In this document: positions 1-23,937 of the stretch, piece by piece
Numbering within the stretch: position 1 is the first letter of the stretch
How the letters are laid out: each line of letters opens with the position of its first letter
IMG/VR virus record: IMGVR_UViG_3300030110_003038
Coordinates: 1-59,633 of that record
Length of the DNA: 59,633 bases
Strand: one strand, 5' to 3'
DNA from: a virus
Taxonomy: Duplodnaviria > Caudoviricetes
Notes under the pieces: generated by a model
The model's input: only the letters and a program-made list of their open reading frames with translations
What the model was told of the DNA's origin: nothing
Database searches by the model: none
Program-made: the position numbers and the translations under genes

Positions 1-1403
1 ACATCTTTCCCTGCATTTATAATAATCTGACTCAGTGGCACTTGTATCGCTTCAATTATTATTTGTGCCGCCACTTTGTCGTGTATTGTTTGCTCAAAAG
101 TCTTATGGCTGAGCTCGTGTGCTGCTCGGTATAGTGCCAACCCTCCGCCAGGAATAATCCCTTCTTGAAGGGCGCTGCGCACCGCGCATACCGAGTCATC
201 GACTCGGTCAAATTTTTCTTTTTGCTCCACATCACTATTAGCTCCCACGTATATACACCCTATTGCACCAGCTAGGCTGGCTACTCTCTCATTTATAAAG
301 TCTTTATCGCTTTTAATGGTCATATTTTTCTGCTGCTCCTTCAGCTCATTGATCCTGTCTAGTGTCGCATCGGTAAGGTTGGCTTCTTTAATGAGTACTG
401 TTGACTCTTTACCCACTATTATTTTATCGACATGTCCCAGGTCACCCATACTTACAAGGCTCAGGTCATCACCCGTCTTTTCGCTGTATATTTTCGCCCC
501 TACCGCGAACGCTATGTCTTGCATAAGCTCACTACTTTTGTATCCAAACTGTGGAGGAGCTATTGTACATAGGCTCAGATTATTTCTTACTACGTTGGCC
601 GCCAAGGTATTGACCACATTCTCAGAGCATGGAGCAATTACTAACAACTTCTCTCTATTTTGTATGATTGGTTTGAGCACGTTCTCTATTTGCAGGATGT
701 TATCTATACCAATATCACACACTAAGACTTTAACATCTTCAAGCACACACTCATCTTTACGGTGGTTGTTAAGGAACATAGGTGAGGAGTACCCCCTATC
801 CACCTTTATCCCGTTAGTCACCTGGGCATAGGTCTCATGATTCTGCGACTTCTCTACTGTCACTATCCCATTAGTACCCACTTTGTTATATGCATCGGCT
901 ATAATACTACCGATCTCTTTGTCGTTGTTAGCAGATATTGTCGCTACATCGAGCAGCGTATCTTTAGTAATTTTCTTAGAGTTTTTTTCTAGTATACCGA
1001 TAATTTTATCGCAGTATCTGTTTACACTTTTAATAACCTCGGTGATGTTATGGTTTTCTTTTAACAGTTTTTGTCCCACATTAACAATCGCTTCAGTAAG
1101 TACTATAGCTGTGGTTGTCCCGTCACCTGCGGAGTTAGCAGTTCTGGTTGCTGCATCCTTCATCATTTGTATGGCTAGGTTTTCTATTGGGTTGTCCAGG
1201 AATATTGACTTGGCTACAGTGACACCGTCTTTAGTAACGGTAATCCCCCCAGTGTGGTCGGGGGATTCAATGAGTACCGTCTGACCTCTTGGGCCTAGTG
1301 TACTTTTAACTGCTTTTGATATCGCAGTAATTCCTTGTATTAGTTGCTCACGACCTTTCTCATCAAAGGTTAAGTCTTTTGGTATATATCCTAGTTTACT
1401 CAT
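1..1403 (-). CDS. groEL: Phage-encoded chaperonin GroEL (Cpn60), truncated at window start
   Basis: Manual translation from ATG at 1403: MSKLGYIPKDLTFDEKGREQL...AVKSTLGPRG...TVTKDGVTVAK...AGDGTTTA...ATISANND...GIIPGGG...AIQVPLSQIIINAGKDV. Missing from the ORF track because the frame runs off the window. Confidence 0.97.
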   Translation of the reverse strand, partial: MSKLGYIPKDLTFDEKGREQLIQGITAISKAVKSTLGPRGQTVLIESPDHTGGITVTKDGVTVAKSIFLDNPIENLAIQMMKDAATRTANSAGDGTTTAIVLTEAIVNVGQKLLKENHNITEVIKSVNRYCDKIIGILEKNSKKITKDTLLDVATISANNDKEIGSIIADAYNKVGTNGIVTVEKSQNHETYAQVTNGIKVDRGYSSPMFLNNHRKDECVLEDVKVLVCDIGIDNILQIENVLKPIIQNREKLLVIAPCSENVVNTLAANVVRNNLSLCTIAPPQFGYKSSELMQDIAFAVGAKIYSEKTGDDLSLVSMGDLGHVDKIIVGKESTVLIKEANLTDATLDRINELKEQQKNMTIKSDKDFINERVASLAGAIGCIYVGANSDVEQKEKFDRVDDSVCAVRSALQEGIIPGGGLALYRAAHELSHKTFEQTIHDKVAAQIIIEAIQVPLSQIIINAGKD

Positions 1404-1430
1404 TGAATTAGATTTAATTAAATTACAAAA

Positions 1431-1438
1431 CAAAGATA
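1431..1438 (-). promoter_or_regulatory. Bacteroidota -7 promoter element (TATCTTTG) for groEL
   Basis: Matches TAnnTTTG about 27 nt upstream of the ATG, followed by an A-rich leader. Confidence 0.7.
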
Positions 1439-1460
1439 GTATAAATTGTCAAAAAGCAAA

Positions 1461-1566
1461 ATGTCGAATGACAAACTTATTGCTCACCTTACTCTCTATA
1501 TATATTTTACCTTACTCTTCTTTTTTTTTATTTTTATAATAGTAATATTTTCGACATTATCGACAT
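1461..1566. repeat. TGTC/GACA repeat cluster flanking an AT-rich spacer (origin-like), copy A
   Basis: ATGTCGAATGACA (1461-1473), a poly-T/AT spacer, then TCGACATTATCGACAT (1551-1566); same architecture as 9700-9803. Confidence 0.55.
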
Positions 1567-1669
1567 TAATAATAATTATAATAATAAAAGTACTGAGAAT
1601 CAGTTAGTTACGTTATGTCGATTTTAAAATTGTGTTGACACAGTTGTGTCGGTTATTGTACACTAACAC

Positions 1670-1700
1670 AAAAAAAAGAGATTCATTTCTAAACCTCTTA
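1670..1700 (-). terminator. Rho-independent terminator
   Basis: Minus strand AAGAGGTTT-AGAAAT-GAATCTCTT followed by a T run, downstream of ORF 1732-1926. Confidence 0.7.
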
Positions 1701-1731
1701 ATTTTAAACAAAAAGAAAACAGAAAAATATT

Positions 1732-1926
1732 TTAATAATTTAGTTCGTTAAACTTCTTTTTATCTTCAGCTAACTGTATAGCTTCTGCCATTAAATTAAT
1801 CTTACGATCATTGTCAACAGCTCGTTTCATAGCAGCTGCTTTTGCTATTCCACTCATGCCATCAGGTCTGTCATTTATAAGTCTTCCGTCCTTGACGTAC
1901 AACCCATCAACGTAATCTTTTGCCAT
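1732..1926 (-). CDS. Hypothetical protein (64 aa)
   Basis: Has its own TATCTTTG promoter box (1947-1954) and a downstream terminator. Confidence 0.8.
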   Translation of the reverse strand: MAKDYVDGLYVKDGRLINDRPDGMSGIAKAAAMKRAVDNDRKINLMAEAIQLAEDKKKFNELNY

Positions 1927-1946
1927 AGTTATAAAATTTTATGCTA

Positions 1947-1954
1947 CAAAGATA
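1947..1954 (-). promoter_or_regulatory. Bacteroidota -7 promoter element (TATCTTTG)
   Basis: TAnnTTTG about 20 nt upstream of ATG 1926. Confidence 0.7.
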
Positions 1955-2478
1955 CGGAAAATATTTTGGAGTATTCAGATATATAGAGGTTGAGGGTTAT
2001 TATTGCTTATACACACACCCCCCTTGATCAAGAAAGTGATTTTTTTTTGACTCATTAAAATGTTTTGAAAAATCCCATATAGATTTTTTCAGAATTCTAA
2101 ATTCAGTTCCCTATAGTAGTGGTTAGGTGGTACATCCTTCACACTATATTCCTTTGTTGATTAGTTATTGTAATGACTTCTAAGAAACTATCTCATACCT
2201 TCCCTTCTTAAATGGTAAACACAAAGAGAACAGACTAAGAGCCTTCCCTTAACCCCTCACCGAGTCAAAATATAACTAAACAAAACACACACAGAATCTC
2301 CATTTCATTTCATGATTGAATATGATTTGTGATTTAAATATTAAATAATAATCATTTGCAACAAGTATTAAAGAAAGTTTCTCCTCATATACATAAAGTA
2401 TTTGATAAATAATAATCAAATAATAATAGTTTATTCGACAAAGTTTATTATATTGCATAAGAATTAAAATTTAAAACT

Positions 2479-2577
2479 ATGTATGAATTAATCGAAACAT
2501 TTAAAATTGAGGTAATTGAATGCCCTCAAGAAATTAGTGAGTCATTCAAAGAATTAACTATAAATATACAACTATGA
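2479..2577 (+). CDS. Small hypothetical protein (32 aa)
   Basis: MYELIETFKIEVIECPQEISESFKELTINIQL; A-rich leader; ATGA overlap with the next ORF. Confidence 0.55.
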   Translation: MYELIETFKIEVIECPQEISESFKELTINIQL

Positions 2578-2768
2578 GTAAAGGAATAGATATGTTTAAA
2601 ATCTTAGCTAATGTTAAGAAAGAGCAAGGTGCTAATGACTTATATTATGAGTTAGAAGACACATTAGTTGGGTGGGGAAACTCCACTCAAGCTTACAACA
2701 ATTTTGTTGAAATATTGGCTAATTGGGATATGGATATCCAAGACTATACAAAAGGTGCAACACTATGA
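2574..2768 (+). CDS. Hypothetical protein (64 aa)
   Basis: ORF track; coupled by ATGA overlaps on both sides. Confidence 0.75.
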   Translation: MSKGIDMFKILANVKKEQGANDLYYELEDTLVGWGNSTQAYNNFVEILANWDMDIQDYTKGATL

Positions 2769-3124
2769 TAGATTATAAAAAAGAAGTGTTAAAAATGAAG
2801 AACATCATCCTCGATTTTGATGGGGATGATGGTACTTGGGATTTGTGCTTTGAGAAAAGAATCACAAATGACTCTGATAAAAGTTTCTCAAATGGTAAAT
2901 CTTATATGCCTATGTATACATACATAAAGTATACCGAAGGAGATTACATTATTGATGATGAAACTGAAATCTATGTGTATGAAGAGATGTTTCAACATAC
3001 AATTATTGATGCTCTTTATGACTCTACAAATAAGAAAATCTTCTTTGATGGTATGAAGAAAAATCAAGTAGATGAATTTGTAGATTGGAGAGATATTTAT
3101 AAACATCATTTGTTATCACAATGA
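2765..3124 (+). CDS. Hypothetical protein (acidic)
   Basis: ORF track 2723-3124; start revised to MIDYKK at 2765 (ATGA overlap). Confidence 0.75.
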   Translation: MIDYKKEVLKMKNIILDFDGDDGTWDLCFEKRITNDSDKSFSNGKSYMPMYTYIKYTEGDYIIDDETEIYVYEEMFQHTIIDALYDSTNKKIFFDGMKKNQVDEFVDWRDIYKHHLLSQ

Positions 3125-3282
3125 ATAAGATAGAAGTAAAATTTACCAAAAGACAATTAGAACTCATTCAATATGCTTGTGAATTGTCCCAAGATGGGAG
3201 AAGAGTAAAGGATGCAGAAGGAATGAAGGCAATTGTAATAAAACTCTATAAGTTAGGAATAATAAATAGAGGAATAGATTAA
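3121..3282 (+). CDS. Small hypothetical protein (53 aa)
   Basis: MNKIEVKFTKRQLELIQYACELSQDGRRVKDAEGMKAIVIKLYKLGIINRGID; ATGA overlap; stop codon lies in hammerhead 1 stem I. Confidence 0.7.
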   Translation: MNKIEVKFTKRQLELIQYACELSQDGRRVKDAEGMKAIVIKLYKLGIINRGID

Positions 3283-3331
3283 CTGAAGAGGATTCAATAT
3301 CCGAAACACCTCTTTATGAGGTGTCTTAATC
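3277..3331 (+). ncRNA. Type I hammerhead ribozyme 1
   Basis: Stem I GATTAA/TTAATC; core CTGAAGA; stem II GGAT-tcaat-ATCC; GAAA; stem III ACACCTC-tttat-GAGGTGT; GUC triplet, cleavage after C3325. Confidence 0.93.
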
Positions 3332-3345
3332 AAAATGAATTAACT

Positions 3346-3900
3346 ATGACTATTAAACAAAAAGTTTTTATATCTCTTAAGAAGAAGTATAAAACATCCT
3401 CTTTTAAATTAGAGGATATTAGAAGAGAAATTTGGGTTGCTCAAGGAAAGAATCCAAAGGAGTTTTATAATAAGCAAGGTTACTACATGGTAGCCATTAA
3501 TGATTGGGTAGGTGATAGACTTTTAAGCAGAAGACAAAAGAACATTTATAAACTATCTTTTGTTGGTTGCCTATATGCTAATAATCCAATCAAAACAAAT
3601 AGGATATTAAGAGCATTGGCAGACAGAAACAAAGCAAGGAGAAAAGCCATCAATAATCATGAGGACAATTTCAAACACTTAGTAGGAAGAAAGATTGTAA
3701 ATGTAAGGAGACTTACTCCTTATGAGTGTGTAAATTTTGGATGGAATAAATCACCTCTTGTATTAGAATTAGATGATAGAACTTGCTTAATTCCTCAGAC
3801 AGATGATGAAGGAAATGAAGGTGGGGCAATGTATCACTATGACTATGATTATAAACAAAGGAAAGGATACATCAAAGAAGAGGTAATATATACTATATAA
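3346..3900 (+). CDS. Hypothetical phage protein (basic N-terminus; C-terminal domain with a DDEGNxxG motif)
   Basis: ORF track 3316-3900; start revised to 3346 because 3316 lies inside the ribozyme and 3346 has the TAACT-ATG context seen in neighbouring genes. Confidence 0.8.
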   Translation: MTIKQKVFISLKKKYKTSSFKLEDIRREIWVAQGKNPKEFYNKQGYYMVAINDWVGDRLLSRRQKNIYKLSFVGCLYANNPIKTNRILRALADRNKARRKAINNHEDNFKHLVGRKIVNVRRLTPYECVNFGWNKSPLVLELDDRTCLIPQTDDEGNEGGAMYHYDYDYKQRKGYIKEEVIYTI

Positions 3901-3916
3901 CTAAAAATAAATAACT

Positions 3917-4045
3917 ATGGAAGAAACAATAAATATAAATATCTGCTACACTATTTGTAGTGAAAGTGGAGATAAAATAATTGACACAGAAATGATGTTA
4001 GAAGATTATTTTGATAAAGTAAATACATTAATTAACCAAAACTAA
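3917..4045 (+). CDS. Small hypothetical protein (42 aa)
   Basis: MEETININICYTICSESGDKIIDTEMMLEDYFDKVNTLINQN; AATAACT-ATG leader; fills the gap between neighbours. Confidence 0.65.
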   Translation: MEETININICYTICSESGDKIIDTEMMLEDYFDKVNTLINQN

Positions 4046-4051
4046 ATAACT

Positions 4052-4561
4052 ATGGGACAATATTTTAAAGTAATAAATAAAACAAAAAAAGAAGTTTTAA
4101 ACCCACATACCTTTGGCAATGGGCTAAAGTTATGGGAATTTGTGTCAGATGGTAATGGAGTTTTACAAGGACTCGGATTGTTATTGGCAGAAGGGCATGT
4201 AGAGTATAAGGATTTAATCCCTAAACCATCTACCATTATCGGTAGGTGGCATGGAGATAAAATAACTATTTTAGGTGACTATGCTCAAGACAAAGAAGGT
4301 AATAACATTTGGGATACTATGTTGGATTCTGAAGGAGAATTAAAGAAGTCATGGAAAGATATTTCTGTGGAGACTTATAAAACACTTCTTAAAGACACTT
4401 GGGTTGGTAATAGGAAAGCCGAACAGATAAAAAAGCATGGAACAAAGTTTATGATGAGTGATGAGAAAAAACTAATGTTAGAGTTATTTCCTAAAGAATG
4501 TACAGAAGGAGACTTGAGACAAAAGTATGACTTTGTAGAGAAAGAACAATCTGAAGAGTAA
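4052..4561 (+). CDS. Hypothetical phage protein (MGQYF...GLKLxE...GRWxGD...GDYA)
   Basis: ORF track; the last codons and stop overlap hammerhead 2. Confidence 0.85.
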   Translation: MGQYFKVINKTKKEVLNPHTFGNGLKLWEFVSDGNGVLQGLGLLLAEGHVEYKDLIPKPSTIIGRWHGDKITILGDYAQDKEGNNIWDTMLDSEGELKKSWKDISVETYKTLLKDTWVGNRKAEQIKKHGTKFMMSDEKKLMLELFPKECTEGDLRQKYDFVEKEQSEE

Positions 4562-4607
4562 AGGTTTAAACACCTACGAAACTCCCATGTATTTGGGAGT
4601 CATTGTT
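4545..4607 (+). ncRNA. Type I hammerhead ribozyme 2
   Basis: Stem I AACAAT/ATTGTT; core CTGAAGA; stem II GTA[AA]GGT-ttaaac-ACCTAC; GAAA; stem III ACTCCCA-tgtatt-TGGGAGT; GUC triplet, cleavage after C4601. Confidence 0.93.
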
Positions 4608-4625
4608 TAACTTAAATTAAATCAA

Positions 4626-4901
4626 ATGAATAAATTAATTAAAGAGATACAATTTCATCTTAAGGAACTCGACAAGGGTAACATAGATAAGGATGATTTT
4701 GTAAATGCTATTACTGAAATTTGTAGTGAAGAATCACCTCAAGCTGTGGAAGATCCTACTTGGGAATTTGACAATTCATCTCCAATTATCCACTTGGATG
4801 AGGATGGAAATGAACTCAAAGATTCTCCACTTAGTAATCCACTTGACAACCATTTTAAAACAATGGCAAGTATGGTCAGAAACTTAACTAAAAATAAATA
4901 A
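4626..4901 (+). CDS. Hypothetical protein (91 aa)
   Basis: ORF track; AATTAAATCAA leader. Confidence 0.75.
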   Translation: MNKLIKEIQFHLKELDKGNIDKDDFVNAITEICSEESPQAVEDPTWEFDNSSPIIHLDEDGNELKDSPLSNPLDNHFKTMASMVRNLTKNK

Positions 4902-4903
4902 CT

Positions 4904-5107
4904 ATGGAATTTAAAAAAGCAATTGTATTTACCGATACCAAAAAACTTACATTTTTTAATAAAAATAATTTTGATACTTATTGTTCTAAACACCAAGTAA
5001 ATGCCGATGATGTATTAATTAATGATATAGCTTTCTATGGATGGGATGAAATAGAAGTATTTTTTAAAGCAAAATCTGAAAATGAATTTTGGGATTATAT
5101 AACATAA
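4904..5107 (+). CDS. Hypothetical protein (67 aa)
   Basis: ORF track; tight operon packing. Confidence 0.75.
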   Translation: MEFKKAIVFTDTKKLTFFNKNNFDTYCSKHQVNADDVLINDIAFYGWDEIEVFFKAKSENEFWDYIT

Positions 5108-5117
5108 AGAAATAATT

Positions 5118-5759
5118 ATGAATGTATTAGAATTATTTAGTGGTAGCCGAAGTATCGGCAAAGAAGCAGAGAAGAGAGGGCATAAAGTCTTCTCTTCAGA
5201 CTTCGTTGATTTTCCAAACACAGACTATGTGTGTGACATCATGAAGTTTGATGTAAACAAGATTCCATTTAAAGTGGATATGTTGTGGGCATCACCACCT
5301 TGTGAGTCATTTTCTGTAGCATCCATAGGACATCATTGGGAGAAAGGTAAAGAGTTTATGCCTAAGACTAACAATGCAGTTAAAGGTATAAACATCTTAA
5401 TGAGAACAATGAAGATAATAGATATAATGTTACATAGAAATCCAAACATGATTTGGTACATAGAGAATCCAAGAGGTAAGATGAGAAAGTCTCCTCATTG
5501 GAATGAAATCCACCATGTTAGGCACACTTTAACCTATTGTCAATATGGTGATGATAGAATGAAGCCAACTGACATTTGGACAAACAATTTTAAGTGGACT
5601 CCCAAACCTATGTGCAAGAATGGTGATCCATGTCATGTGTCGGCACCAAGAGGAAGTCAAACTGGAACACAAGGTCGTGGAAGCTACTTTGATAGAAGTA
5701 AGATTCCTTCTGAATTGTGTAAAGAAATAGTAAGTATAACAAGTAAATTAAATAAATAA
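5118..5759 (+). CDS. Short DNA (cytosine-5) methyltransferase
   Basis: Motif I LELFSGSRS, catalytic WASPPC, motif VI IENP, YCQYG. Confidence 0.88.
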   Translation: MNVLELFSGSRSIGKEAEKRGHKVFSSDFVDFPNTDYVCDIMKFDVNKIPFKVDMLWASPPCESFSVASIGHHWEKGKEFMPKTNNAVKGINILMRTMKIIDIMLHRNPNMIWYIENPRGKMRKSPHWNEIHHVRHTLTYCQYGDDRMKPTDIWTNNFKWTPKPMCKNGDPCHVSAPRGSQTGTQGRGSYFDRSKIPSELCKEIVSITSKLNK

Positions 5760-5762
5760 ATT

Positions 5763-5957
5763 ATGGCAAATAGTAGTTATTGCAGATATGAAAATACTGC
5801 ACGAGATTTAAAAGATTGTGTAGAAGCAATTGATACTGATGGAATATCAGAAACTGCAAGTGATAGAGAAATTGAAGGGTTGAGAGATTTACTCATTCTT
5901 GCAAAAGAAGTGGTAGATAGAGAGGATGAAATTCTGGACTTGCTCGGTGATAGTTAA
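5763..5957 (+). CDS. Hypothetical protein (SYCRYENT motif)
   Basis: ORF track; operon packing. Confidence 0.8.
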   Translation: MANSSYCRYENTARDLKDCVEAIDTDGISETASDREIEGLRDLLILAKEVVDREDEILDLLGDS

Positions 5958-5987
5958 AAAAAATGTATAACTTAAATTAAATAAATT

Positions 5988-6227
5988 ATGAATAGAGAAG
6001 AAATATATAATCAAGTAATTCAAGAGTATTCTGAATTAATAGATAATGGAGAAACTTGGACCACACCAACTGGTGATAATATTCAAGATATAATAGGAAA
6101 CTTAGTTGACTTAGTTATGAAATATGGTCAAGAAGTGTATGATGTTGTTGACCTTGATGATTATACTTTAGAACAATTAATGGACTATGAATACTTAGAA
6201 AGTAAAATAAAAATTTTAATAAATTAA
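5988..6227 (+). CDS. Hypothetical protein (acidic, 79 aa)
   Basis: ORF track; A-rich leader. Confidence 0.75.
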   Translation: MNREEIYNQVIQEYSELIDNGETWTTPTGDNIQDIIGNLVDLVMKYGQEVYDVVDLDDYTLEQLMDYEYLESKIKILIN

Positions 6228-6238
6228 ATAAAAAAACT

Positions 6239-6547
6239 ATGGATTTAGAAAATAAACATACTGAAATTGAACATCTCAGAAAGCTATTGCAAGAAGAGAT
6301 GAAAGCAAAGGATGAAGCAATTAAAGAGTTGAATAATTATAAAAACTCTTATTTAACAATTGATAAAAAGTATTATCCAAAGGATGTAAAGTTTTATCAG
6401 AAAGCACAACTTTTCGAAATAAGAAAAGGTGATGACTTGCAAGATGATGACATATGGGATTCATATTGTGAAGACTTAGGGATAGATGAAGGACAAGAAT
6501 CCTTCTGTGTTTGTGTGATTGGGATAATGCATCAGTATGACTCCTAA
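6239..6547 (+). CDS. Hypothetical protein (102 aa)
   Basis: ORF track. Confidence 0.75.
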   Translation: MDLENKHTEIEHLRKLLQEEMKAKDEAIKELNNYKNSYLTIDKKYYPKDVKFYQKAQLFEIRKGDDLQDDDIWDSYCEDLGIDEGQESFCVCVIGIMHQYDS

Positions 6548-12350: not shown

Positions 12351-13565
12351 ATGAAAAAAATTACTGTTTTAGACCTTTTTTCAGGAATTGGGGGATTTCA
12401 CCTAGGTTTTGAAAAAGCTGGATATGACGTTAAAACTTTCTTTTCTGAAGTCGATGCTCATGCCATTGCAGTATATAAGTATAATTTTAAAAATAGTAAA
12501 TATGTCGGATCAGTTACAGATGTTCGAGGAGAACAGTTACCAAAAATTGACGCTATCACCTTTGGAAGCCCTTGCCAAGACTTTAGTGTTGCTGGAAATC
12601 GTAAAGGGATGGAAGGAGATAGATCGAGCCTTATACTTGAAGCGATTAGACTCATCGATGAGTGCCGACCAGGAGTTTTTATCTGGGAAAATGTTAAAGG
12701 AACATTCAGCTCAAATGATGGCAGAGACTTTGCGGCAATCCTCCAAGCCTTTACCAACATTGGGGGCTATAGACTTGAATGGCAATTGTGTAATACATCG
12801 TGGTTTCTACCCCAAAACAGAGAGAGAATCTACCTTGTCGGATATTCTGCAAACCCCCCAAGAGATTGGAAAGGAGTTTTTCCTATCCAAAAAGATGACA
12901 AAGTTTTTAATGGACAGATCGGGGAAAAAGGACAACGATTATCAGGTTCCGAATCTGGATGTACACGAACAATAACCTCAAGATATTGGAAGATGGGTTC
13001 TTCTGATACTTATATTAAAATGGCAGACTATAGGAATGATGAAGGGCTTAGAGTGAGGGAAGATGATGAAAGCCCTTGTTTATCTGCACGAAGACACAGT
13101 GAGAAGGATGTAAGCACTATGCCACCACTAGCAGTATCAGGAGCATTAAGAACTTATCCTAGGCAAAAGCCAAAAGGTGAAGAAGATAATAGAAAAAAAC
13201 AATTAGAAACTAGGACTGATGATGTTTCTAATGCAGTCACTACTCACCCTTTTGATAGTGTGGTTGTGCCAACACAATTAGGTAACTCTGAAAAGTATGG
13301 AAATTCAGTTAAGTCTGAGGGTGATGATGCTTTTACATTAAGATCCTCAGAACCCAATGGTGTTATAGAAAACAAATCTATAAGAAGGCTTACTCCTATA
13401 GAATGTGAAAGACTACAAGGGTTTCCTGATAATTGGACTCAATATGGAATTTATAATGGTGAGACAAAAGAAGTGAGTAACACACAAAGATATAAGATGT
13501 GTGGTAATGCAGTCACTGTTGATGTGGTTGAAGCTGTGGTTAATCAGTGCAAAGACATAATATGA
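12351..13565 (+). CDS. DNA (cytosine-5) methyltransferase with an extended variable region
   Basis: DLFSGIGG, GSPCQ, ENVKG, PQNRERIY, RRLTPIECERLQGFPD, YKMCGNAV. Confidence 0.95.
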   Translation: MKKITVLDLFSGIGGFHLGFEKAGYDVKTFFSEVDAHAIAVYKYNFKNSKYVGSVTDVRGEQLPKIDAITFGSPCQDFSVAGNRKGMEGDRSSLILEAIRLIDECRPGVFIWENVKGTFSSNDGRDFAAILQAFTNIGGYRLEWQLCNTSWFLPQNRERIYLVGYSANPPRDWKGVFPIQKDDKVFNGQIGEKGQRLSGSESGCTRTITSRYWKMGSSDTYIKMADYRNDEGLRVREDDESPCLSARRHSEKDVSTMPPLAVSGALRTYPRQKPKGEEDNRKKQLETRTDDVSNAVTTHPFDSVVVPTQLGNSEKYGNSVKSEGDDAFTLRSSEPNGVIENKSIRRLTPIECERLQGFPDNWTQYGIYNGETKEVSNTQRYKMCGNAVTVDVVEAVVNQCKDII

Positions 13566-15652: not shown

Positions 15653-15844
15653 ATGAACGATATATCTCAAGACGATGTGAATGCTATCAAGCATATTAAC
15701 TTTGTGACTAATAATTCACATGATCTTATTACCGAGTTATATGAAGATTTAATGGAAAGAGATCACAACCAGGCTAAGATAAAAGCACAAAAAGTTTGTA
15801 AGGTTATGGCTGATTTAATTCAGTCTTTGTCGGATGAAGTCTAA
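15653..15844 (+). CDS. Hypothetical protein (63 aa)
   Basis: TATATTTG box at 15623-15630; stop overlaps the convergent giant ORF stop. Confidence 0.75.
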   Translation: MNDISQDDVNAIKHINFVTNNSHDLITELYEDLMERDHNQAKIKAQKVCKVMADLIQSLSDEV

Positions 15845-18800
15845 CGCTTTTCTCTTGGAGCTCTTTTTTCTCTTGGAGCTCTTTTTTCTCTTGGAGTTCT
15901 TTTTTCTCTTGGTGCTCTTTCTCTTGAATTATCTTCTAAATCTTTTAAAAACTCAGCTCTCTTGCTTTCATCAGAATCAATTATATAATCTGAATAACCT
16001 AACGCCCTTAACCAATATCCATTTGTTGTAAGGTAATTACCAGCTTTATCTTTACCAGTAATTAATTGATTTACATTATATCCTAACTGAGTTGCTTTAG
16101 TAACAGGCACGAGAGATAGTTCGGCTATAGCTCCTGCCGCCTCTAAAGCATATTGATCTTTTTTTGGATTATCTGGTTTTGCATTAGCCCACCTATTATA
16201 TTTTCTAAATATATTTTCTAGAAATTCTTGATAAGATATACCTCTTACTTCTCCTGCATAAGGTTTGTTTTGTGCAAAATCCGCTAAAGAAGTTACAATA
16301 TCTCCCACCAAAAATAAACCATTTATATTACCTAATATAGCAGCTCTAATTAAATCATACTGATCTTCATCATCATAGTCTGTTAATAATCCTGGTAAAC
16401 CTAAAGTAGTATATTGGAATGTCATAGGCATAACAAAATGGTACAACATTAAATTTCTTATATTTTCAATAAGTGAACCCTTTCCAGCATTAGCCGCAGC
16501 AGTAAAAGGATTTTCTCCTTTAAATGTAGCTTTGGTAAATGCATCAACCTTTCTATATAATTGTCTTATAGCATATCTTTCTTTTCTTAAATATTGTTTT
16601 GGAGTTGTTTTAAACATATTTAAACTTCTCATTAAAGGATCTGAAGTTTGAAAAAAATCTTTATCTTGTAAGTCTTGTGATTGCTGGGTTCCTTTAGTGT
16701 CTTTTTCAAATCTATTTATAGCAAAATCAATAGCCTCTTGTTTAGTTGCTTTAGGATTGTTTTTTAAATACCTTTCTTTATAATACATATAATTTGGCAC
16801 ACCACCTAAATATATTGCTCCAGCATCACCAGCTCTTGAAAAGGCTAATGAGATTCCCATTAAAGTTTCTTTTCCTAACCCTGGGAGTAGGGGTGGTAAT
16901 GTAGAAGATCCTTCTGCATATGATTCTAGTGATTTTTCAAAAGAATTAGAATATCTATCTTTTAAATAAATAGAATTTTGATGTATTTCTTTTAATGCAC
17001 CAAAGACTTTGCCTGTAGCTACTCCTTTACCATAATAATACATCCAATTAGCCACGCCTATATCACCCATATAAGTGAATAAAGATAACAACTGTTTAAC
17101 TGCAATTACTGGAGATAAAGCTAGTCTTGTTCCTAAAAATATATCATTCATTGCATTAACAAAAACCGCACCTCTACCACTACTTATGCCTCTTGTAGCA
17201 ATTTTTTGAATAATTTCGTTTATTAAATAATTATAATCTTCTCCTTTGGTACTTCTTATTGCATCTTTAATTAAAGGGTTTGTAAATATTTTATTTACAT
17301 CTCGAACATTTTCAGCATAAGCAGCAAAATAATTCATATCAGTTAAATAACTATTTAAAACACTATTACCACTCATTGCACGAATAGGTTTACTCGTAGC
17401 TTGTCTTCCTAATAAAGATGAGCTTCCTACATTGGTTCTATATATATTAGATGAACCAATTAAATCTACATTGTCATTATCTTTTTCCGCTACATCTTCT
17501 CTATAAATACGTCCTCCATATAGCTTGTTCCATGGCAAATCTGTTCTATAAATTCTTTTATATACATCATTATACCTTTCATATATAGATGGAAAGAACT
17601 CATTGGTTTGCCAGTCCGCCCACTCTTTCAATTCAGGAGACATAGATTCAGTTAATTCTTTCATTATTCTATCTGCATCTGGACCAAATAATTTATTATC
17701 TGGATTTAAAAAAGATGCTCTATTAGCGGGATCCTTAAATTGGTTATATAAATAATAAGTTTGGGAGTCAGATAAAGTAATTTGTTGATTTAAACGCACT
17801 AAATTTAAATTAGATTTAGCTTTTCTTTTATTTATTACACCTTTCGCATCTTTATATTGTTGTTCTGCTTTTTCTACTGCTTTGATATCTCTGTAAATAA
17901 CCTTACCATCTTTTGTTTTTCTTCCTTCTCTTCCTATAAAGGTTAATGAAGGCTTTTCCATAGCCCTAATTTTTTGTCTTGCAATCATCTTCCTAACACG
18001 TAGGGGCACAGTTATTCCTTTTACTTTTTTAGGTCCCCCAAAAAGTTCTGTATATTTTTCTGCCATCACCCTATTATCTTCTAATTGATATTGTTTGTAA
18101 AGAATTGATGACTCATTTATTTTATCATAAACTAATTCTTGAGTTCTTCCTTCAAACATTAATCCAGGTAAATTAGATATAGCATCCATAATGTTTTGTA
18201 AACTATCTCCTCTTCTTAAAAATCCAACTGTAGAATTTTTAACTATTTTTAATATTTTTGTTAGTGCAAAACGAGTGTTTTCCTCTTCTTTTTGTTTAGA
18301 AATTTCTCTTTCTTTTAATATTTTTTTTGCTTTTTCTATAGAGTCAGGATCACTAAAATCAATTTTTTCTCCTGTAATGTCTTCATATATATACTCATTA
18401 CGAGTTCTATACCCTTGACTTGCTTCTGCAAGTTGATCGTTTAATTGACTTCTACCATCAGCTATCAAGCTTTCTAAATTTGCTACTACATTATCTAAAG
18501 CTTCTACTTTTGTTGCTTGATTTTGCCCCATATATAAAGAGTTGTTTATCTCGATGGCTAATTGATAATCTGCGGCCTCATTATTTTGTTCTTCCGTTAG
18601 CTCTATGCCATTTAATAATTGAGCTATTCTGTCTTGTAATATGCTATTTTGTTCTCCAATTCGTTCTGCTAATTTATTTTTCTTTGCTTCAAGTCTTGCT
18701 TTTCCTTTTAAATCTTTATCTATTCCTAATAATCCTTTTGCCTCTATTATTAAAACATTTTCTTTTATTCTGTCTATCCTCTTTCTAATAGTATTAGATA

Positions 18801-21800
18801 TTTTATTAGCTTTAGACTTATTATCTTCTACCTTTACATACTTATCGTATAATAATTTATCTAATTTATTTTCTAAAATTTCAACATTAATATTATTAAT
18901 CTCCTCTACAACTTCATCTACTATATTATCAATGTTTTTTTGAACTGCATTAATGTCTTTTAATTTTCGCATTAACTTTACAACTCTTGGTTTTTTTACT
19001 TTTATATCTGGTAATGATTTCCTAACAAAAGACAACAAAGCTTGTTGAATAGCATATCTATTTTTTACTCCTTTAGTTCTTTCTTTCATTGCTTTTACAG
19101 CATTGTTTATTCTTTCTCTTACATTTTGTGTGGGTCTACTTCCTAAAGCTTTTACTGTTGCGGAAACTAACAAAGTTTGTAAATCAGATTGAGTAACTTT
19201 TTCTGCTACATCAGAAACAAACTCTTTAGACTCAGCCTTTTTTATGTTTTTTACATTAGTATTTTTAAATTCAGGCTGTTCTTGTAAATAATCTAAAGTT
19301 TTATCTACAATTTCAGCTTTGCTTAATTTAGTTTTTTTGTTTTTGTTTGATTTTTCTAATGATTTAAATTTTTTCATTACCTTATTGTATAAGGCTTTCC
19401 CTTTTTTTAATCCTAAGTTTAAAAAAACTTTAGGCATAATTGGACTTACGCCTGTAAAGATATCGGCTGTTTCTATTGCACTTTTAATTTCTTGAGCTGT
19501 AGCTCCTTTAATTCTTCTTAAATAATCTAATATAGCAATATCCGATCTTCCCGCATTTCTTTCATTAATTATAATTTGTGCATTAGTTGAACTATCATCA
19601 AACTGATATCTTTGATTAGATGCATAAGGATTATAAAACCTTCCATTTTTTCTAAAAAAATATCCTGTTGGTTGATTGTAATTATATGCATTTCGATCTC
19701 TTACTCTTCCTAAGTCTACTTTAAAACCTAAGGCTTTAGCATCTTCTTTTAATTTTTTTAAATCTCTAGGTAGTAATTTGTTATAATCTATAAAACCACT
19801 ATCCTGCATTTTATAAAATCTTCCTAAAGATTTAATGTCTTTTTGATTTTTACTTTCAGTAGTATCTATTATACTTGTATCTAATGTAACAACATCAGTG
19901 CTTGTGCCAAAAGTAGGAAAAATACTTTTCTCTCTTTCGGATGTTACCTTTTGATCGGTATTAGGATCTTGAGTAATGTCATTCCATTTAGGTCTATTAG
20001 TTAAAATATTAACAATAGGTTTTTGAGATTTATCTACTGTTTCTATTGCATAAGGATATGATTCATGTTTATCGCTTTTTACCGCTTTTACCTTACTGTC
20101 TACTTCAAGCATAGCATATACTTGTCCCCCAGTGCTTCTATCTTTAAAACCATCTTTTAGTATAGGTTCAGTTAACATTTCAGACAACGCTTGTATCATA
20201 TTGGTTTTAGAAATTTTTAACTTACCTGTAGAGGTTTTTCCCTTAAAGTATTTATTCTGAATACCTTGGCTAAAAATAGTACCAAATTGTTTTACTGCTT
20301 TTGGATTATTAATAATTTCCGCAGACATTAAAGAAATAAGTGTTTCTGTAAATAACTTTCTATCTCCAAATGTACTATTGTCTGCTCCTAAAGCTGTTTT
20401 AATCTTTTTTAAATTATTTTCAAACTTATCTGTTTTCTTTAATTTTAGTTGTTTACCTAAACCTTCTTTTTCCACTACTGTGTTTGCAGCCTCTATTATA
20501 GCTTTTCGAACTATTGGTTTTTTTATTTTTAATTTTCTATCTAAAGCTACTGAGTTAAAAAAATCTAAGACTGCATTAGACATTGTTGTGCTAGATAATA
20601 ATTTACTATAAGGTGCGCTAGTTAAAGCCATGTACACTTTGCCATCATTAACCTCATAAGTTTTATTTAATATGTCTGCCATTTGTGTAGCTGCATCTTT
20701 TGTAGATGCCCAAAAATATCCATCATCATGAAATTTTAAAGTATAATATATTCCTCCTTTTCCTTCAACTAATTTTTCTCCGTCTTTAAAAATATTTCCA
20801 CTAAATGCACCATCGGGTTGATGTAAGACTACTGTTTTTCTATTAAAATCTTGAATCGATCTGTCTCTTGTAATAAAATTTTTAGCTTCTAGTAATTTAA
20901 ATTTTGCAGTATTTTTTAAATACTCAAAACTTAACCCTGATTCTTTATCTACAAAATCTGCTTGAAACCTATTATTTTCTTTTTCTATTTTTGTTTCTGA
21001 AGTAGAGTCTTTAGTTTGTTGTTTAGTGCTTTTACCTTTAGGTGTAGAAGGTTTCTTTTTAGGAGTAGATTTTATAGTTTTAGTTTTAGTTTTACTTGAC
21101 ATCTCTGATTCTATGTCTTTTAAAACCTGTATATCTTCTGCTACAATTTCTGTACCAGAGGTAACCTTACCAGCTACTACATTCATAAACTGTATAATAT
21201 CATTGTCAGATTTAGTAAACTCACTTACATATTTATCTAGTTTTAATAATTTTAAAACTTCATTAATAAATTTTCTAACCACCCCCTGTTCCTTAGGTTT
21301 TAATGTTTGAAAATTAGAAGCAATTAACCCAAATAATTCTGCAACTTTTTCTTCACTTTGTAAGTTATTATCATAATTACTCGCAAACTCATCTAAATAG
21401 GTTTCTAAGGATTTCGAATTCCCATCTTTATCTTTAATTTTCATTCTAGATAAAGCTTTAGATTTTTTAATAGTAGACAACATTTTTTTAGTTAATCCTT
21501 GGAGGTTAGCATTAACACCTAAAGTTTCGATTAATACCGCGTGAGCTACTTCATGAGCTAATGTAGTGGTAGTTGCCTTAGAGGCGTTAATATAAATTGT
21601 TTTCTTATCTACATTATAATTACCCCTTGAATCTTTACCTGTTAAAAGCTTGTAAGTTTCAGCATCCTCTACTATTTTTATTTTTACATTAGGCAATACT
21701 TTAGCTAGTGCTTTTCCTGCTTTTTTGGCAGTGTTAACGACTTTATTATATCCTGCAATAGCCTTTTCTCCTATTATTTTTTCAACACTTTGATAATTAC

Positions 21801-23937
21801 TAACATTATCTAATACTGTTTCTTCTTTTACTTTTATTTTAACGCCATCAGAAGAGGTTTCTGTTGTTTCGGTAACCTCATTTCTTTTCATAGCCGAATC
21901 TTGTTCAACAGCTTTTTCTTCTATAGCCTTCGCTTCACTTATTAACTCATCTAATTTAGTTTGTACTTGCTCTGGCGAAGGATCGACTACCCCGTCTTTT
22001 TCTAATTCAGAAAGAGCATCTTGCTCAGTAATAGTTGTTTCTTCAACTATTTCCTCTTGCGTTGTTTCCTCAACCGCATCTTGGTCGGTTTGTTCTTGCT
22101 TACTCTGATCGGTAGTTTGCCCGGTGGTGTCTCCTTTTCCCATTTTTTTGCTATCTGGGGTAAGTTTTGATACATCCAAGCTCTTTGTTTCTGACTTAAA
22201 AATGGCATCTGCTTTGGCTTTAATTTGTTTTGGAGATGGATTTTCCACCCCTTCCTTCTTTAATTCTTCTACTGCTCTTTCATCTAAAGTACCATTGTAT
22301 TTTTCAACAATAGCTTTAATTTCTTTTTTAATTTGTTTGTTTTTTAACTGATTAGATTCTAATTCTAAGTTTCCAATTTTTGATCTTTCTAACTCTAAGT
22401 CAATTAATCTTTCTTTTTCAGGACCATCAGGTACATTAGGATCAATTTCTAACGCAAAGTTTGCCCTTGCTCTTGCATCCGTAAGAATTTTTTTTCTTGC
22501 CGGATCGTTTTTAATTTCTATTCCTAGTTCAGAAGAAGCTAATTGTTCTGCATTCATGGTCTCTAACAAATTATCCACATAACCTTGTGTTACTCTTTCT
22601 CCATTAACTATATATTTAGGTACCGTTAATAACCCTCCTGTAATAGATATAGGAGCTGTAGACAATCCAGCAATACCTTCTAAGAATATATCTTTTTTAT
22701 CCATTTCTTGTCCCGCTACTAACCTTCCAAGAGCCTCACCACCTGAACCCATACCTCCTTCTATGGCTATACCCCCTGCAATACCTCCAAGTTTTTTTGC
22801 TTGAATATTTTTAACGCCTTTTGTTGTTTTACCTAAAACTCCACTTCCACCTTTTATACCGAGTTTTCCTACAGAACTTACAAAGGCTTTTGAAAAACCT
22901 AAAGACATCGCTTCAACAGCTGCAATAGTCATACCCCTAGATAAAGCTCGGTTTCTTATTTGTGTCATTGCAACAGGATCTTCTAATGTTTGTCTCACTC
23001 CCTCCACTGTCATAGGCCTACCTTGTTTTGTCATTTCTTCACCTAAAAACTCCGTAAAACTTATCCCTGTTTCTAAAGCGCCTGTAGCACCTGCTATCAT
23101 ACCAGCGGTAGCACCTGTACCCCCACCTATTTGAGAACCAATAAATGCTCCTATAGGACCACCATATGAGGTAGCTAAAGCACCTGTACCTGCACCTGCT
23201 AGATATCCTGCACCAGCACCCACTCCACCCATTGCCGCTGGAGCTGGTTGAAACATAGAAACTATTGATTGAGCTAGAACAGCGGGAGCAACACTAAAAT
23301 TATCTAATAACCCCATGCTTAATCCTTTTAAACCTCCTCCATTTTCTTCCGATATTCGACTAAACTCCTTCATCTCATCACTTTCAGGCATACTATTCAT
23401 ATAATTAACTGCTTCTATATAGTCCTCAATGTCTTGATCTGAAAGTTTTCTAGGTTTAGAGTTCATTACTCCTAAAAACTCATCTATACCTTGTCCTTGT
23501 GCTACCCCTGTTTCTCCAGCTCTCCAAATGTCTCCAAAGAAATCTGTAAATCCATTTTTACCAAAAGTTCTTTCTAATAAAGTAGGCTTTTCTTCAGTTT
23601 CTATAAAACTTTCTCGTTCAACTTGTTGAACTTGTGGTGTTACTTCTTCTTGTTGAATAGGTTGGTCTAATGAAACTCTATTATCTATAATAGGGCTGTC
23701 TTGAGAATCATCTTGTATAGAAGGGTCTAACGAAGAGTCTATAGGAGATGAAAAAAATTGATCTTGAAATTCTATAAAAGATTTAGTGTAAAGTTTGTCT
23801 TTGTTTAAAGAGTTGTATAGTTTTTTTTGTTTAGTAGAGTCACTAAACTGTTTTACAAAGTCTTCAAAACCTTTAGTATACAATTTAGACTTATAGAGCT
23901 CATCATATAATTTTCTTAAAGATTCATTTTGTGCCAT
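15841..23937 (-). CDS. Giant internal virion/ejection protein (2698 aa) with a zincin-like HExxH domain
   Basis: Last gene of the morphogenesis block; Gly/Ala hydrophobic N-terminal region; AHEVAH motif; helical C-terminus. Confidence 0.7.
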   Translation of the reverse strand: MAQNESLRKLYDELYKSKLYTKGFEDFVKQFSDSTKQKKLYNSLNKDKLYTKSFIEFQDQFFSSPIDSSLDPSIQDDSQDSPIIDNRVSLDQPIQQEEVTPQVQQVERESFIETEEKPTLLERTFGKNGFTDFFGDIWRAGETGVAQGQGIDEFLGVMNSKPRKLSDQDIEDYIEAVNYMNSMPESDEMKEFSRISEENGGGLKGLSMGLLDNFSVAPAVLAQSIVSMFQPAPAAMGGVGAGAGYLAGAGTGALATSYGGPIGAFIGSQIGGGTGATAGMIAGATGALETGISFTEFLGEEMTKQGRPMTVEGVRQTLEDPVAMTQIRNRALSRGMTIAAVEAMSLGFSKAFVSSVGKLGIKGGSGVLGKTTKGVKNIQAKKLGGIAGGIAIEGGMGSGGEALGRLVAGQEMDKKDIFLEGIAGLSTAPISITGGLLTVPKYIVNGERVTQGYVDNLLETMNAEQLASSELGIEIKNDPARKKILTDARARANFALEIDPNVPDGPEKERLIDLELERSKIGNLELESNQLKNKQIKKEIKAIVEKYNGTLDERAVEELKKEGVENPSPKQIKAKADAIFKSETKSLDVSKLTPDSKKMGKGDTTGQTTDQSKQEQTDQDAVEETTQEEIVEETTITEQDALSELEKDGVVDPSPEQVQTKLDELISEAKAIEEKAVEQDSAMKRNEVTETTETSSDGVKIKVKEETVLDNVSNYQSVEKIIGEKAIAGYNKVVNTAKKAGKALAKVLPNVKIKIVEDAETYKLLTGKDSRGNYNVDKKTIYINASKATTTTLAHEVAHAVLIETLGVNANLQGLTKKMLSTIKKSKALSRMKIKDKDGNSKSLETYLDEFASNYDNNLQSEEKVAELFGLIASNFQTLKPKEQGVVRKFINEVLKLLKLDKYVSEFTKSDNDIIQFMNVVAGKVTSGTEIVAEDIQVLKDIESEMSSKTKTKTIKSTPKKKPSTPKGKSTKQQTKDSTSETKIEKENNRFQADFVDKESGLSFEYLKNTAKFKLLEAKNFITRDRSIQDFNRKTVVLHQPDGAFSGNIFKDGEKLVEGKGGIYYTLKFHDDGYFWASTKDAATQMADILNKTYEVNDGKVYMALTSAPYSKLLSSTTMSNAVLDFFNSVALDRKLKIKKPIVRKAIIEAANTVVEKEGLGKQLKLKKTDKFENNLKKIKTALGADNSTFGDRKLFTETLISLMSAEIINNPKAVKQFGTIFSQGIQNKYFKGKTSTGKLKISKTNMIQALSEMLTEPILKDGFKDRSTGGQVYAMLEVDSKVKAVKSDKHESYPYAIETVDKSQKPIVNILTNRPKWNDITQDPNTDQKVTSEREKSIFPTFGTSTDVVTLDTSIIDTTESKNQKDIKSLGRFYKMQDSGFIDYNKLLPRDLKKLKEDAKALGFKVDLGRVRDRNAYNYNQPTGYFFRKNGRFYNPYASNQRYQFDDSSTNAQIIINERNAGRSDIAILDYLRRIKGATAQEIKSAIETADIFTGVSPIMPKVFLNLGLKKGKALYNKVMKKFKSLEKSNKNKKTKLSKAEIVDKTLDYLQEQPEFKNTNVKNIKKAESKEFVSDVAEKVTQSDLQTLLVSATVKALGSRPTQNVRERINNAVKAMKERTKGVKNRYAIQQALLSFVRKSLPDIKVKKPRVVKLMRKLKDINAVQKNIDNIVDEVVEEINNINVEILENKLDKLLYDKYVKVEDNKSKANKISNTIRKRIDRIKENVLIIEAKGLLGIDKDLKGKARLEAKKNKLAERIGEQNSILQDRIAQLLNGIELTEEQNNEAADYQLAIEINNSLYMGQNQATKVEALDNVVANLESLIADGRSQLNDQLAEASQGYRTRNEYIYEDITGEKIDFSDPDSIEKAKKILKEREISKQKEEENTRFALTKILKIVKNSTVGFLRRGDSLQNIMDAISNLPGLMFEGRTQELVYDKINESSILYKQYQLEDNRVMAEKYTELFGGPKKVKGITVPLRVRKMIARQKIRAMEKPSLTFIGREGRKTKDGKVIYRDIKAVEKAEQQYKDAKGVINKRKAKSNLNLVRLNQQITLSDSQTYYLYNQFKDPANRASFLNPDNKLFGPDADRIMKELTESMSPELKEWADWQTNEFFPSIYERYNDVYKRIYRTDLPWNKLYGGRIYREDVAEKDNDNVDLIGSSNIYRTNVGSSSLLGRQATSKPIRAMSGNSVLNSYLTDMNYFAAYAENVRDVNKIFTNPLIKDAIRSTKGEDYNYLINEIIQKIATRGISSGRGAVFVNAMNDIFLGTRLALSPVIAVKQLLSLFTYMGDIGVANWMYYYGKGVATGKVFGALKEIHQNSIYLKDRYSNSFEKSLESYAEGSSTLPPLLPGLGKETLMGISLAFSRAGDAGAIYLGGVPNYMYYKERYLKNNPKATKQEAIDFAINRFEKDTKGTQQSQDLQDKDFFQTSDPLMRSLNMFKTTPKQYLRKERYAIRQLYRKVDAFTKATFKGENPFTAAANAGKGSLIENIRNLMLYHFVMPMTFQYTTLGLPGLLTDYDDEDQYDLIRAAILGNINGLFLVGDIVTSLADFAQNKPYAGEVRGISYQEFLENIFRKYNRWANAKPDNPKKDQYALEAAGAIAELSLVPVTKATQLGYNVNQLITGKDKAGNYLTTNGYWLRALGYSDYIIDSDESKRAEFLKDLEDNSRERAPREKRTPREKRAPREKRAPREKR
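15848..15925 (-). repeat. 18-nt tandem repeat, about 4 copies, encoding R(A/T)PREK
   Basis: Unit TTTTCTCTTGGAGCTCTT on the + strand. Confidence 0.9.

Follow-up and report, generated by a model that had tools for sequence, protein, structure and literature searches.

INTRODUCTION

Hammerhead ribozymes are known from prophages in bacterial genomes, where, in the sections of Perreault et al. 2011 (PMC3088659) that were accessed, they are described as often flanking individual genes, or small groups of them, of variable identity. The role proposed in those sections is that long phage transcripts are cut into gene- or operon-length mRNAs; spliced or circular products are named there as an alternative, with neither detected, and polycistronic constructs of about 2 kilobases (kb) were cleaved in vitro, one of the constructs also in E. 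coli. The same sections describe the haloviruses HF1 and HF2, in which a hammerhead lies 13 nucleotides (nt) before the start codon of a helicase gene and the mapped 5' end of an early transcript falls within 3 nt of the cut. A 2019 review (PMC6765202), in the part consulted, still treats as open what the thousands of hammerheads in bacteria and phages do. Here, we analyze two hammerheads, HH1 and HH2, which lie 1276 nt apart on the + strand of the early operon of a tailed phage (IMG/VR record IMGVR_UViG_3300030110_003038; Duplodnaviria, Caudoviricetes), with genes between them that vary among relatives. The whole stretch of 59,633 nt that was analyzed is referred to as the window.

We propose, with a probability of about 0.6, that HH1 and HH2 mainly serve to process the early polycistronic mRNA. 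A sequence-only reading of the window had kept such processing as a fallback behind a circularising cassette, and the comparison with relatives presented below makes the fallback the better-supported of the two.

RESULTS

Two type I hammerheads in the window

Both strands of the window were scanned with a descriptor that required the hammerhead core (C3, U4, G5, A6, N7, G8 and A9; G12, A13 and A14; an A15.1-U16.1 pair; and any base except G at H17), stems I, II and III of at least 4, 3 and 3 base pairs (bp), and U followed by non-G at the cut site. Exactly two sites matched, HH1 (3277-3331) and HH2 (4544-4608), both on the + strand. Among 200 shuffled windows the mean number of matches was 0.03, and 5 of the 200 contained any match. 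Both sites carry the core CTGAAGA ... GAAA ... T-C, and in both of them stems II and III are closed by loops while stem I is open, i.e., the type I topology. Two complete type I hammerheads on the same strand, as the sequence-only reading had it, are thus borne out by the sequence, by the descriptor scan and by a covariance model built from 77 relatives (see below), which scores HH1 (one of its training sequences) at 67.4 bits and HH2 (outside the training set) at 39.5 bits (E 3.9e-9), with the third-best site in the window at 11.5 bits. We rejected a chance motif on the basis of the shuffles and the covariance-model scores. As had been noted earlier, the two sites share one core sequence and differ in each of the three stems, and the two ribozymes are of different subtypes; a recent duplication was rejected on these grounds. 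From the intact motifs and their relatives we judge that HH1 and HH2 are very probably genuine catalytic hammerheads.

HH1 belongs to a subtype with the conserved stem II GGAUUCAAUAUCC. Its stems I, II and III have 6, 4 and 7 bp in the descriptor scan: GATTAA (3277-3282) pairs with TTAATC (3326-3331) in stem I, the core CTGAAGA (3283-3289) is followed by stem II (GGAT-TCAAT-ATCC, 3290-3302) and GAA (3303-3305), and stem III (ACACCTC-TTTAT-GAGGTGT, 3306-3324) is followed by C17 at 3325. The minimum-free-energy fold given by RNAfold is the exact three-way hammerhead junction. Upstream of HH1 lies a + strand open reading frame (ORF) of 53 amino acids (aa) at 3121-3282, whose stop codon TAA (3280-3282) supplies the final three bases of the stem I 5' strand and so ends at +6 within the ribozyme. 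The cut is predicted between C3325 and U3326, and would leave an A/U-rich leader of 20 nt (3326-3345, + strand) on the downstream mRNA before the ATG of ORF1 at 3346. This leader contains a two-codon mini-ORF, ATGAATTAA (ATG AAT TAA, 3335-3343). There is also an in-frame ATG at 3316 within stem III, which the predicted cleavage would strip off.

HH2 is of a second subtype, with a 7-bp stem I and a long, bulged stem II. GAACAAT (4544-4550) pairs with ATTGTTT (4602-4608) in stem I, and the core CTGAAGA (4551-4557), a stem II of 20 nt (4558-4577), GAA (4578-4580), stem III (ACTCCCA-TGTATT-TGGGAGT, 4581-4600) and C17 (4601) follow one another. The descriptor scan gives 7, 3 and 7 bp for stems I, II and III, with stem II resuming beyond a 2-nt bulge; in the RNAfold prediction stems I and III form as expected, and stem II carries a two-base bulge. 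The last 18 nt of the gene ahead (ORF3), its stop codon among them, are shared with stem I, the core and the start of stem II (+18). Cleavage is predicted between C4601 and A4602, and an A/U-rich leader of 24 nt (4602-4625, + strand) would stay on the downstream mRNA up to the ATG of ORF4 at 4626. ORF4 (4626-4901, + strand, 91 aa in the ORF list) would be the first gene of the transcript segment made by HH2 cleavage. Stem III of HH2 and the T-rich stretch after it (4581-4610 together) were flagged as resembling an intrinsic terminator.

Both predicted cuts fall where the sequence-only reading had placed them, after C3325 and after C4601. The product between them would be an RNA of 1276 nt (3326-4601) with three ORFs (ORF1, 3346-3900; ORF2, 3917-4045; ORF3, 4052-4561), in agreement with the ORF list.

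An Rfam search had been suggested as a check on the ribozymes. Searched whole, whether at the gathering score or at E up to 10, the window yielded no ribozyme; in sub-searches of 121 nt, hammerhead models matched below threshold, RAGATH-1-hammerhead (RF03152) with 24.8 and 20.4 bits (gathering score 56.3) and Hammerhead_1 (RF00163) with 14.3 bits (gathering score 34). For both models the core and the three-stem layout align with the whole hammerhead part of HH1 and HH2, and the upstream hairpin of RAGATH-1 has no convincing match at the window sites. The main text of PMC5737381 contains no description of the RAGATH-1 motif. By the thresholds of Rfam, HH1 and HH2 are therefore outside its families, and relatives were needed to decide.

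Relatives and covariation of the stems

We scanned IMG/VR with an 18-base word consisting of HH1 stem II plus GAAAC, which is independent of the CUGANGA box and of stems I and III. The word matches 58 contigs and occurs 63 times, the window included. Complete hammerheads, their stems I and III varying, surround it in 52 of the 63 occurrences (40 of 48 distinct contexts); the remainder comprises 2 probable hammerheads (one cut by the contig end, one with a long insert in stem III) and 9 stretches of unrelated coding sequence. Among 185,579 prokaryote species (one genome each), the same word occurs 33 times and never in a hammerhead context, so that in hammerhead context it was seen in viral contigs only. 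All of these 33 occurrences are in ordinary coding sequence, several of them in one conserved Flavobacterium gene. The corresponding word from HH2 stem II matches 9 viral contigs.

The resulting family set has 70 sources and 674,906 nt, with two contigs fetched twice (individual loci are designated L001, L004 and so on). Our scanner finds 152 hammerheads in it, 114 of them unique in sequence, as compared to 0.6 per shuffled set. With the covariance model from 77 family members, 68 sources yield 155 matches at E up to 0.001. In the alignment of these 77 members, 99.6% of the cells pair, 14 of the 16 pairs show changes on both sides, and the covariation score is 0.785 versus 0.155 after shuffling (none of 500 shuffles reached 0.785). 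Because pairing was a requirement of the scanner that picked the 77 rows, the word-based test (52 of 63) is the unbiased one. The stems of homologues thus change in compensation while the core stays fixed. HH2-type homologues with compensatory changes in stem III include those at L001, L004 and L069, among others; those at L001 and L004 retain stem III through differing sequences, and the one at L004 also alters the free position N7. The HH1 homologue at L004 (602-662) shares its stem II with HH1; stem I is compensated (GGTTAA/TTAACC), stem III is unrelated, and the core reads TTGATAA, i.e., U3 and A8 replace the C3-G8 pair with the rest of the ribozyme intact. Exchanges of this core pair such as U3-A8 reportedly keep activity. 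The C3-G8 pair of hammerheads is described in the consulted part of PMC3884650.

Over the 114 unique relatives the core is invariant except for the free N7 and two U3-A8 cores, with stems varying freely. At N7, U is found in 63 of them, C in 33, A in 16 and G in 2; at H17, C is found in 88, A in 25 and U in 1. Stem I has exactly 6 bp in 94 of the 114, it is preceded by A in 108 and followed by A in 110, and loop II is highly conserved; the fixed length of stem I together with the conserved loop II suggests a tertiary contact.

These data also bear on the possibility that the motifs are non-catalytic structures (terminator or attenuator hairpins, or binding sites for proteins) or decayed relics, which we regard as extremely improbable. 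The terminator-like look of HH2 stem III followed by CATTGTTTAA and the Rfam scores below gathering would fit it, but all core positions that catalysis requires are intact in both ribozymes, the core holds across the unique relatives (apart from N7 and the two U3-A8 cores) while the stems are free to change, and a plain hairpin would not keep CUGANGA...GAAA.

Placement of the hammerheads between genes

Placement, the most telling of our results, was examined for 120 non-duplicate hammerheads, counting an ATG only where the ORF that it starts has 30 aa or more. The cut precedes such an ATG by 10-40 nt in 107 of the 120 (median 23 nt), as compared to 18% of random positions from the same loci (n=1240). 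The stop codon of the preceding ORF has its end within -20 to +39 of the ribozyme start in 112 of 119 hammerheads. The window values for HH1 and HH2 are in line with this, with 20 and 24 nt from cut to ATG and stops at +6 and +18. Given such placement, the cut never takes away a stop or a start codon. The leaders after the cut have a G+C content of 22.5% and an A at -3 in 85% of cases, and 37 of 112 contain a Shine-Dalgarno-like tetramer; thus the family covers phages of hosts with and without Shine-Dalgarno use. Bacteroidota are largely without it.

All 40 sources with at least two hammerheads have them all on one strand. Among the 62 hammerhead-bearing sources, 22 have a single hammerhead in the stretch compared. 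The 78 distinct adjacent pairs have a median spacing of 460 nt. In an 11-kb locus, L016, the scanner finds 12 hammerheads and the covariance model more. Its array (L016:2292-8607) has the 12 co-oriented hammerheads spaced 146-1928 nt apart, an AGGAGG-type leader and an ATG come after almost all of them, and nearly all gene junctions have a predicted cut. Another array-bearing contig contains a match to the DUF805b RNA above its gathering score (38.9 bits, L011:250-282). In six array-rich relative loci, no hammerhead was matched at the Rfam gathering score.

Motif integrity, family membership, covariation and the fixed position between stop and start are all direct observations. Taken together, the placement relative to stop and ATG, the different subtypes and the co-orientation lead us to treat HH1 and HH2 as two independent modules, each made of a stop codon, a ribozyme, a leader and a start codon.

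In two loci the module is the only thing repeated between unrelated neighbor genes: 67 nt at 100% identity in L006 (2311-2645), and 89 nt at 97% in L007 (2518-3632), where there is a third copy at 67%. These repeats point to spread or homogenisation of the hammerhead-plus-leader module within a genome. They are what one would expect if the module were mainly a portable or selfish element, or a shared recombination site for early-gene cassettes, with cleavage secondary. The same view accommodates the similarity between the window and L004 near HH1, which is limited to 3273-3349 (ribozyme plus leader) in another gene context, and the finding that some ORF3 homologues are accompanied by an HH2-type ribozyme (window, L001, L004 and L069) and others have none (L002, L003 and L063). 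Metagenome contigs of related strains that break off at 4550 or 4610, or jump from 4615 to 5118, right beside HH2, would fit as well, which is a weak point as these are contigs only. A recombination site, however, needs neither an invariant catalytic core and compensatory stems, nor a U3-A8 exchange, nor a fixed distance to the ATG; and since spread and processing are compatible, this explanation bears on the origin of the modules more than on their function. As an account of what the modules mainly do, we consider it unlikely.

The two ribozymes as a pair

The sequence-only reading favored a self-excising, circularising cassette: the two cuts would free the 1276-nt RNA with its three genes, and a host ligase of the RtcB type would close it into a circular mRNA resistant to re-cleavage. 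The chemistry is suitable, as hammerhead products carry 5'-OH and 2',3'-cyclic phosphate ends, which fit RtcB. Natural hammerheads also ligate to about 10% at equilibrium, according to the part of PMC3884650 consulted. Among the relatives, 45 of the 78 adjacent pairs have matching stems I and could re-form a hammerhead at the junction (25 of the 78 give a chimeric stem I of at most 2 bp). More speculatively, where an array has identical stems I, the one-gene pieces released from it could be ligated into circles, which does not apply to the window pair. Joining 4601 to 3326 gives a chimeric stem I with 0 of 7 bp; the earlier statement that the ligated junction cannot rebuild stem I is correct, and so nothing would hold the ends together.

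Conservation of the pair had also been proposed as a check, and the relatives turned out not to keep it. When ORF3 homologues were sought in viral contigs, four loci were obtained, three of them with hammerheads. The closest contig, L001 (ORF3 81% identical), has HH2 and no HH1 ahead of its ORF1 homologue, and the closest complete genome, MW202828.1, has no hammerhead by covariance model or scanner. In L004 and L015 the order is reversed, with the HH1-type ribozyme downstream of the HH2-type and around other genes. Sources with a single hammerhead (the 22 of 62 mentioned above) have no partner to pair with in the stretch compared, and the distance from ribozyme to start codon is accounted for without any partner ribozyme. 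No RtcB or RNA_ligase domain was found in the 96%-complete phage genome, in which case a host enzyme would be needed, as is possible. Circular and spliced products of clustered hammerheads were sought by Perreault et al. and, in the sections of PMC3088659 accessed, none was detected. With incompatible stems I, a pair that is not conserved and no ligase of the phage itself, the circularising cassette has neither comparative nor sequence support for HH1 and HH2, and we consider it very improbable.

Proposed processing of the early transcript

If HH1 and HH2 process the early mRNA, the two modules would act within the operon of early and replication genes, which runs rightward over about 2.5-16 kb, each with the stop of the upstream gene, the hammerhead, an A/U-rich leader of 20-24 nt and the ATG of the next gene. 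The ribozymes would fold as the early polycistronic RNA is made, and each would cut after its C17. Cleavage would give three parts, namely an upstream RNA, the 1276-nt mRNA with three genes, and a downstream mRNA. The upstream part would end in ribozyme hairpins with a 2',3'-cyclic phosphate, and the 1276-nt and downstream mRNAs would each open with a 5'-OH, a start codon following some 20 nt further on. Two benefits seem likely: the downstream gene would receive a short, defined and unstructured leader, and its stability and translation would be uncoupled from the upstream sequence, much like with a natural insulator. Both the cleavage in vivo and its effect on stability or translation are inferred. 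HH2 stem III is the only + strand terminator-like site in 1400-6500; the lack of any other fits one transcription unit. Sigma-70-like sites are at chance level (32 versus 30.5 expected).

Several points weigh against this reading. Only two gene junctions of the early operon bear a hammerhead, so processing is no general need of the operon. The modules are dispensable, as seen from MW202828.1 (no module) and L001 (HH2 only). HH2 has a bulged stem II, the two closing pairs of which are absent from the RNAfold prediction, and neither HH1 nor HH2 reaches the Rfam gathering threshold of RF00163 or RF03152. Finally, the loci behind the family statistics were fetched by means of hammerhead words, because of which each locus has at least one hammerhead by construction.

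A further-reaching version, which we put forward as tentative and rather unlikely, is that hammerhead plus leader form a portable 'gene-start cassette' of virulent phages in which cleavage about 23 nt before the ATG is required for translation. Such a cassette would act through its short, unstructured 5'-OH leader, and would matter most in hosts poor in Shine-Dalgarno use, e.g. Flavobacteriia. If true, gene-start cassettes spread among genes and genomes and turn an operon into a series of independent messages; one relative has at least 12 hammerheads within 11 kb.

The phage genome and the genes around the ribozymes

The window genome is a single contig that is 96% complete according to CheckV. 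Its + strand block at about 2.5-16 kb holds small ORFs, two DNA methyltransferase genes (5118-5759 and 12351-13565), an exonuclease VIII-like gene, a primase/helicase and a helicase; HH1 and HH2 sit among its small, fast-changing early ORFs. The portal, terminase and virion proteins are encoded in a minus strand block, which includes very large ORFs of 2698 aa (15841-23937), 1611 aa (29939-34774) and 1992 aa (51583-57561). The terminase is 74% identical to that of the uncultured podovirus MW202828.1 and about 46% to that of Flavobacterium phage vB_FspP_elemo, and the remaining records that match it are Cellulophaga, Tenacibaculum and Maribacter phages. The window phage is a podovirus-like phage of about 60 kb related to phages of Flavobacteriia.

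The genes between the two ribozymes, all on the + strand, say little about function. ORF1 (184 aa) and ORF2 (42 aa) belong to no known family by the ORF list, PHROGs and Pfam, and ORF3 (169 aa) belongs, by the ORF list and homologue searches, to a large uncharacterised phage protein family with 1206 representative clusters at E up to 0.001. PHROGs and Pfam gave no match for ORF1, ORF2, ORF3 or ORF4; for the proteins between the ribozymes, a protein atlas returned 'hypothetical protein' clusters only and sequence searches of PDB gave no meaningful match. The C-terminal part of ORF1 recurs in other hammerhead-bearing phage contigs. An AlphaFold model of ORF3 (predicted local distance difference test score 89.8) has no Foldseek match in PDB at E up to 0.001; the best VIA-align Z for the model is 4.4 and involves only its predicted helical tail, and in BFVD the model matches two uncharacterised phage proteins, one of them labelled as a SWIM-type domain protein. 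Inside ORF3 there is a weak match to the LOOT RNA (4218-4341, 25.9 bits; gathering score 46.4), probably by chance.

Metagenome contigs of related strains were compared over 2600-5200, and variants skip 3123-3265, 3899-4038 and 4615-5118. Some contigs match the HH2 region only, with unrelated flanks; as far as contigs can tell, the early region is highly mosaic.

Cultured phages with hammerheads of this family

Searching 50,697 phage records with both ribozyme regions by blastn gave no match at E up to 0.01 and nine matching records when E was relaxed to 10. The one of these that was examined, Methylophilales phage MEP301, holds a hammerhead of the family (MW452941.1:702-753, L113) between gp02 and gp03, with 53.5 bits. 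Flavobacterium phage vB_FspP_elemoF (NC_055853.1:16045-16102, minus strand, L072) has one member with a weak stem II (42.1 bits). No RNA feature covers either hammerhead among the annotation rows listed. These two cultured carriers can be used for experiments.

DISCUSSION

We note that ribozyme-punctuated early operons escape routine Rfam scans at standard thresholds, which matters for the annotation of phage genomes. In the library that was searched, we found no paper on hammerhead arrays in Flavobacterium, Cellulophaga, crAss-type or Flavobacteriia-type phages.

Cleavage between or ahead of genes is a familiar way to separate messages and to standardise 5' ends. The early polycistron of T7 is cut in this way at RNase III sites, by a host protein enzyme, and the engineered RiboJ insulator works in a similar manner; neither is related to the window hammerheads.

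Retrozymes and viroid-like RNAs resemble the window in that two hammerheads on the same strand bracket a segment and leave 5'-OH and 2',3'-cyclic phosphate ends. In the consulted part of PMC6765202 they are described as having repeated, compatible hammerheads and as replicating via circles; since their bracketing hammerheads are compatible repeats, the joined ends re-form the ribozyme. The window pair differs, being of two subtypes with 0 of 7 bp in the chimeric stem I, and its segment is 1.3 kb of ordinary phage coding sequence, unlike those of retrozymes and viroid-like RNAs.

Hammerheads in the 5'-untranslated regions of RNA mycoviruses are needed for translation, according to the accessed part of a 2026 paper (PMC13725137). 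Like those of the window they are of type I and lie in a 5' leader just ahead of an ORF, with self-cleavage tied to translation in the mycoviruses as described there. These are eukaryotic RNA viruses with cap-independent translation, whereas the window belongs to a DNA phage. Should the gene-start cassette prove real, it would be the counterpart in bacterial viruses of such cleavage-dependent translation.

Haloviruses HF1 and HF2 resemble the window in that an early polycistronic transcript has a ribozyme shortly before a start codon. As far as the sections accessed describe them, they differ in being archaeal viruses with a core-variant ribozyme in single copy 13 nt from the start codon, as compared to a median leader of 23 nt in the window family.

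The prophage clusters of Perreault et al. are the closest in arrangement, with several hammerheads on the same strand around variable genes. The cases in the accessed sections of that paper are prophages in bacterial genomes with ribozymes of types I, II or III, and the window is a free phage-like contig with type I only; some metagenomic ribozymes of the window family may already be in its Dataset S1. Both the gene-flanking arrangement and the two hypotheses (processing and circles) have been in print since 2011, and the window adds nothing new in kind. What the family offers is a handle on hammerhead function, with its rigid layout of stop codon, ribozyme, leader of about 23 nt and ATG, and with its dense, co-oriented arrays.

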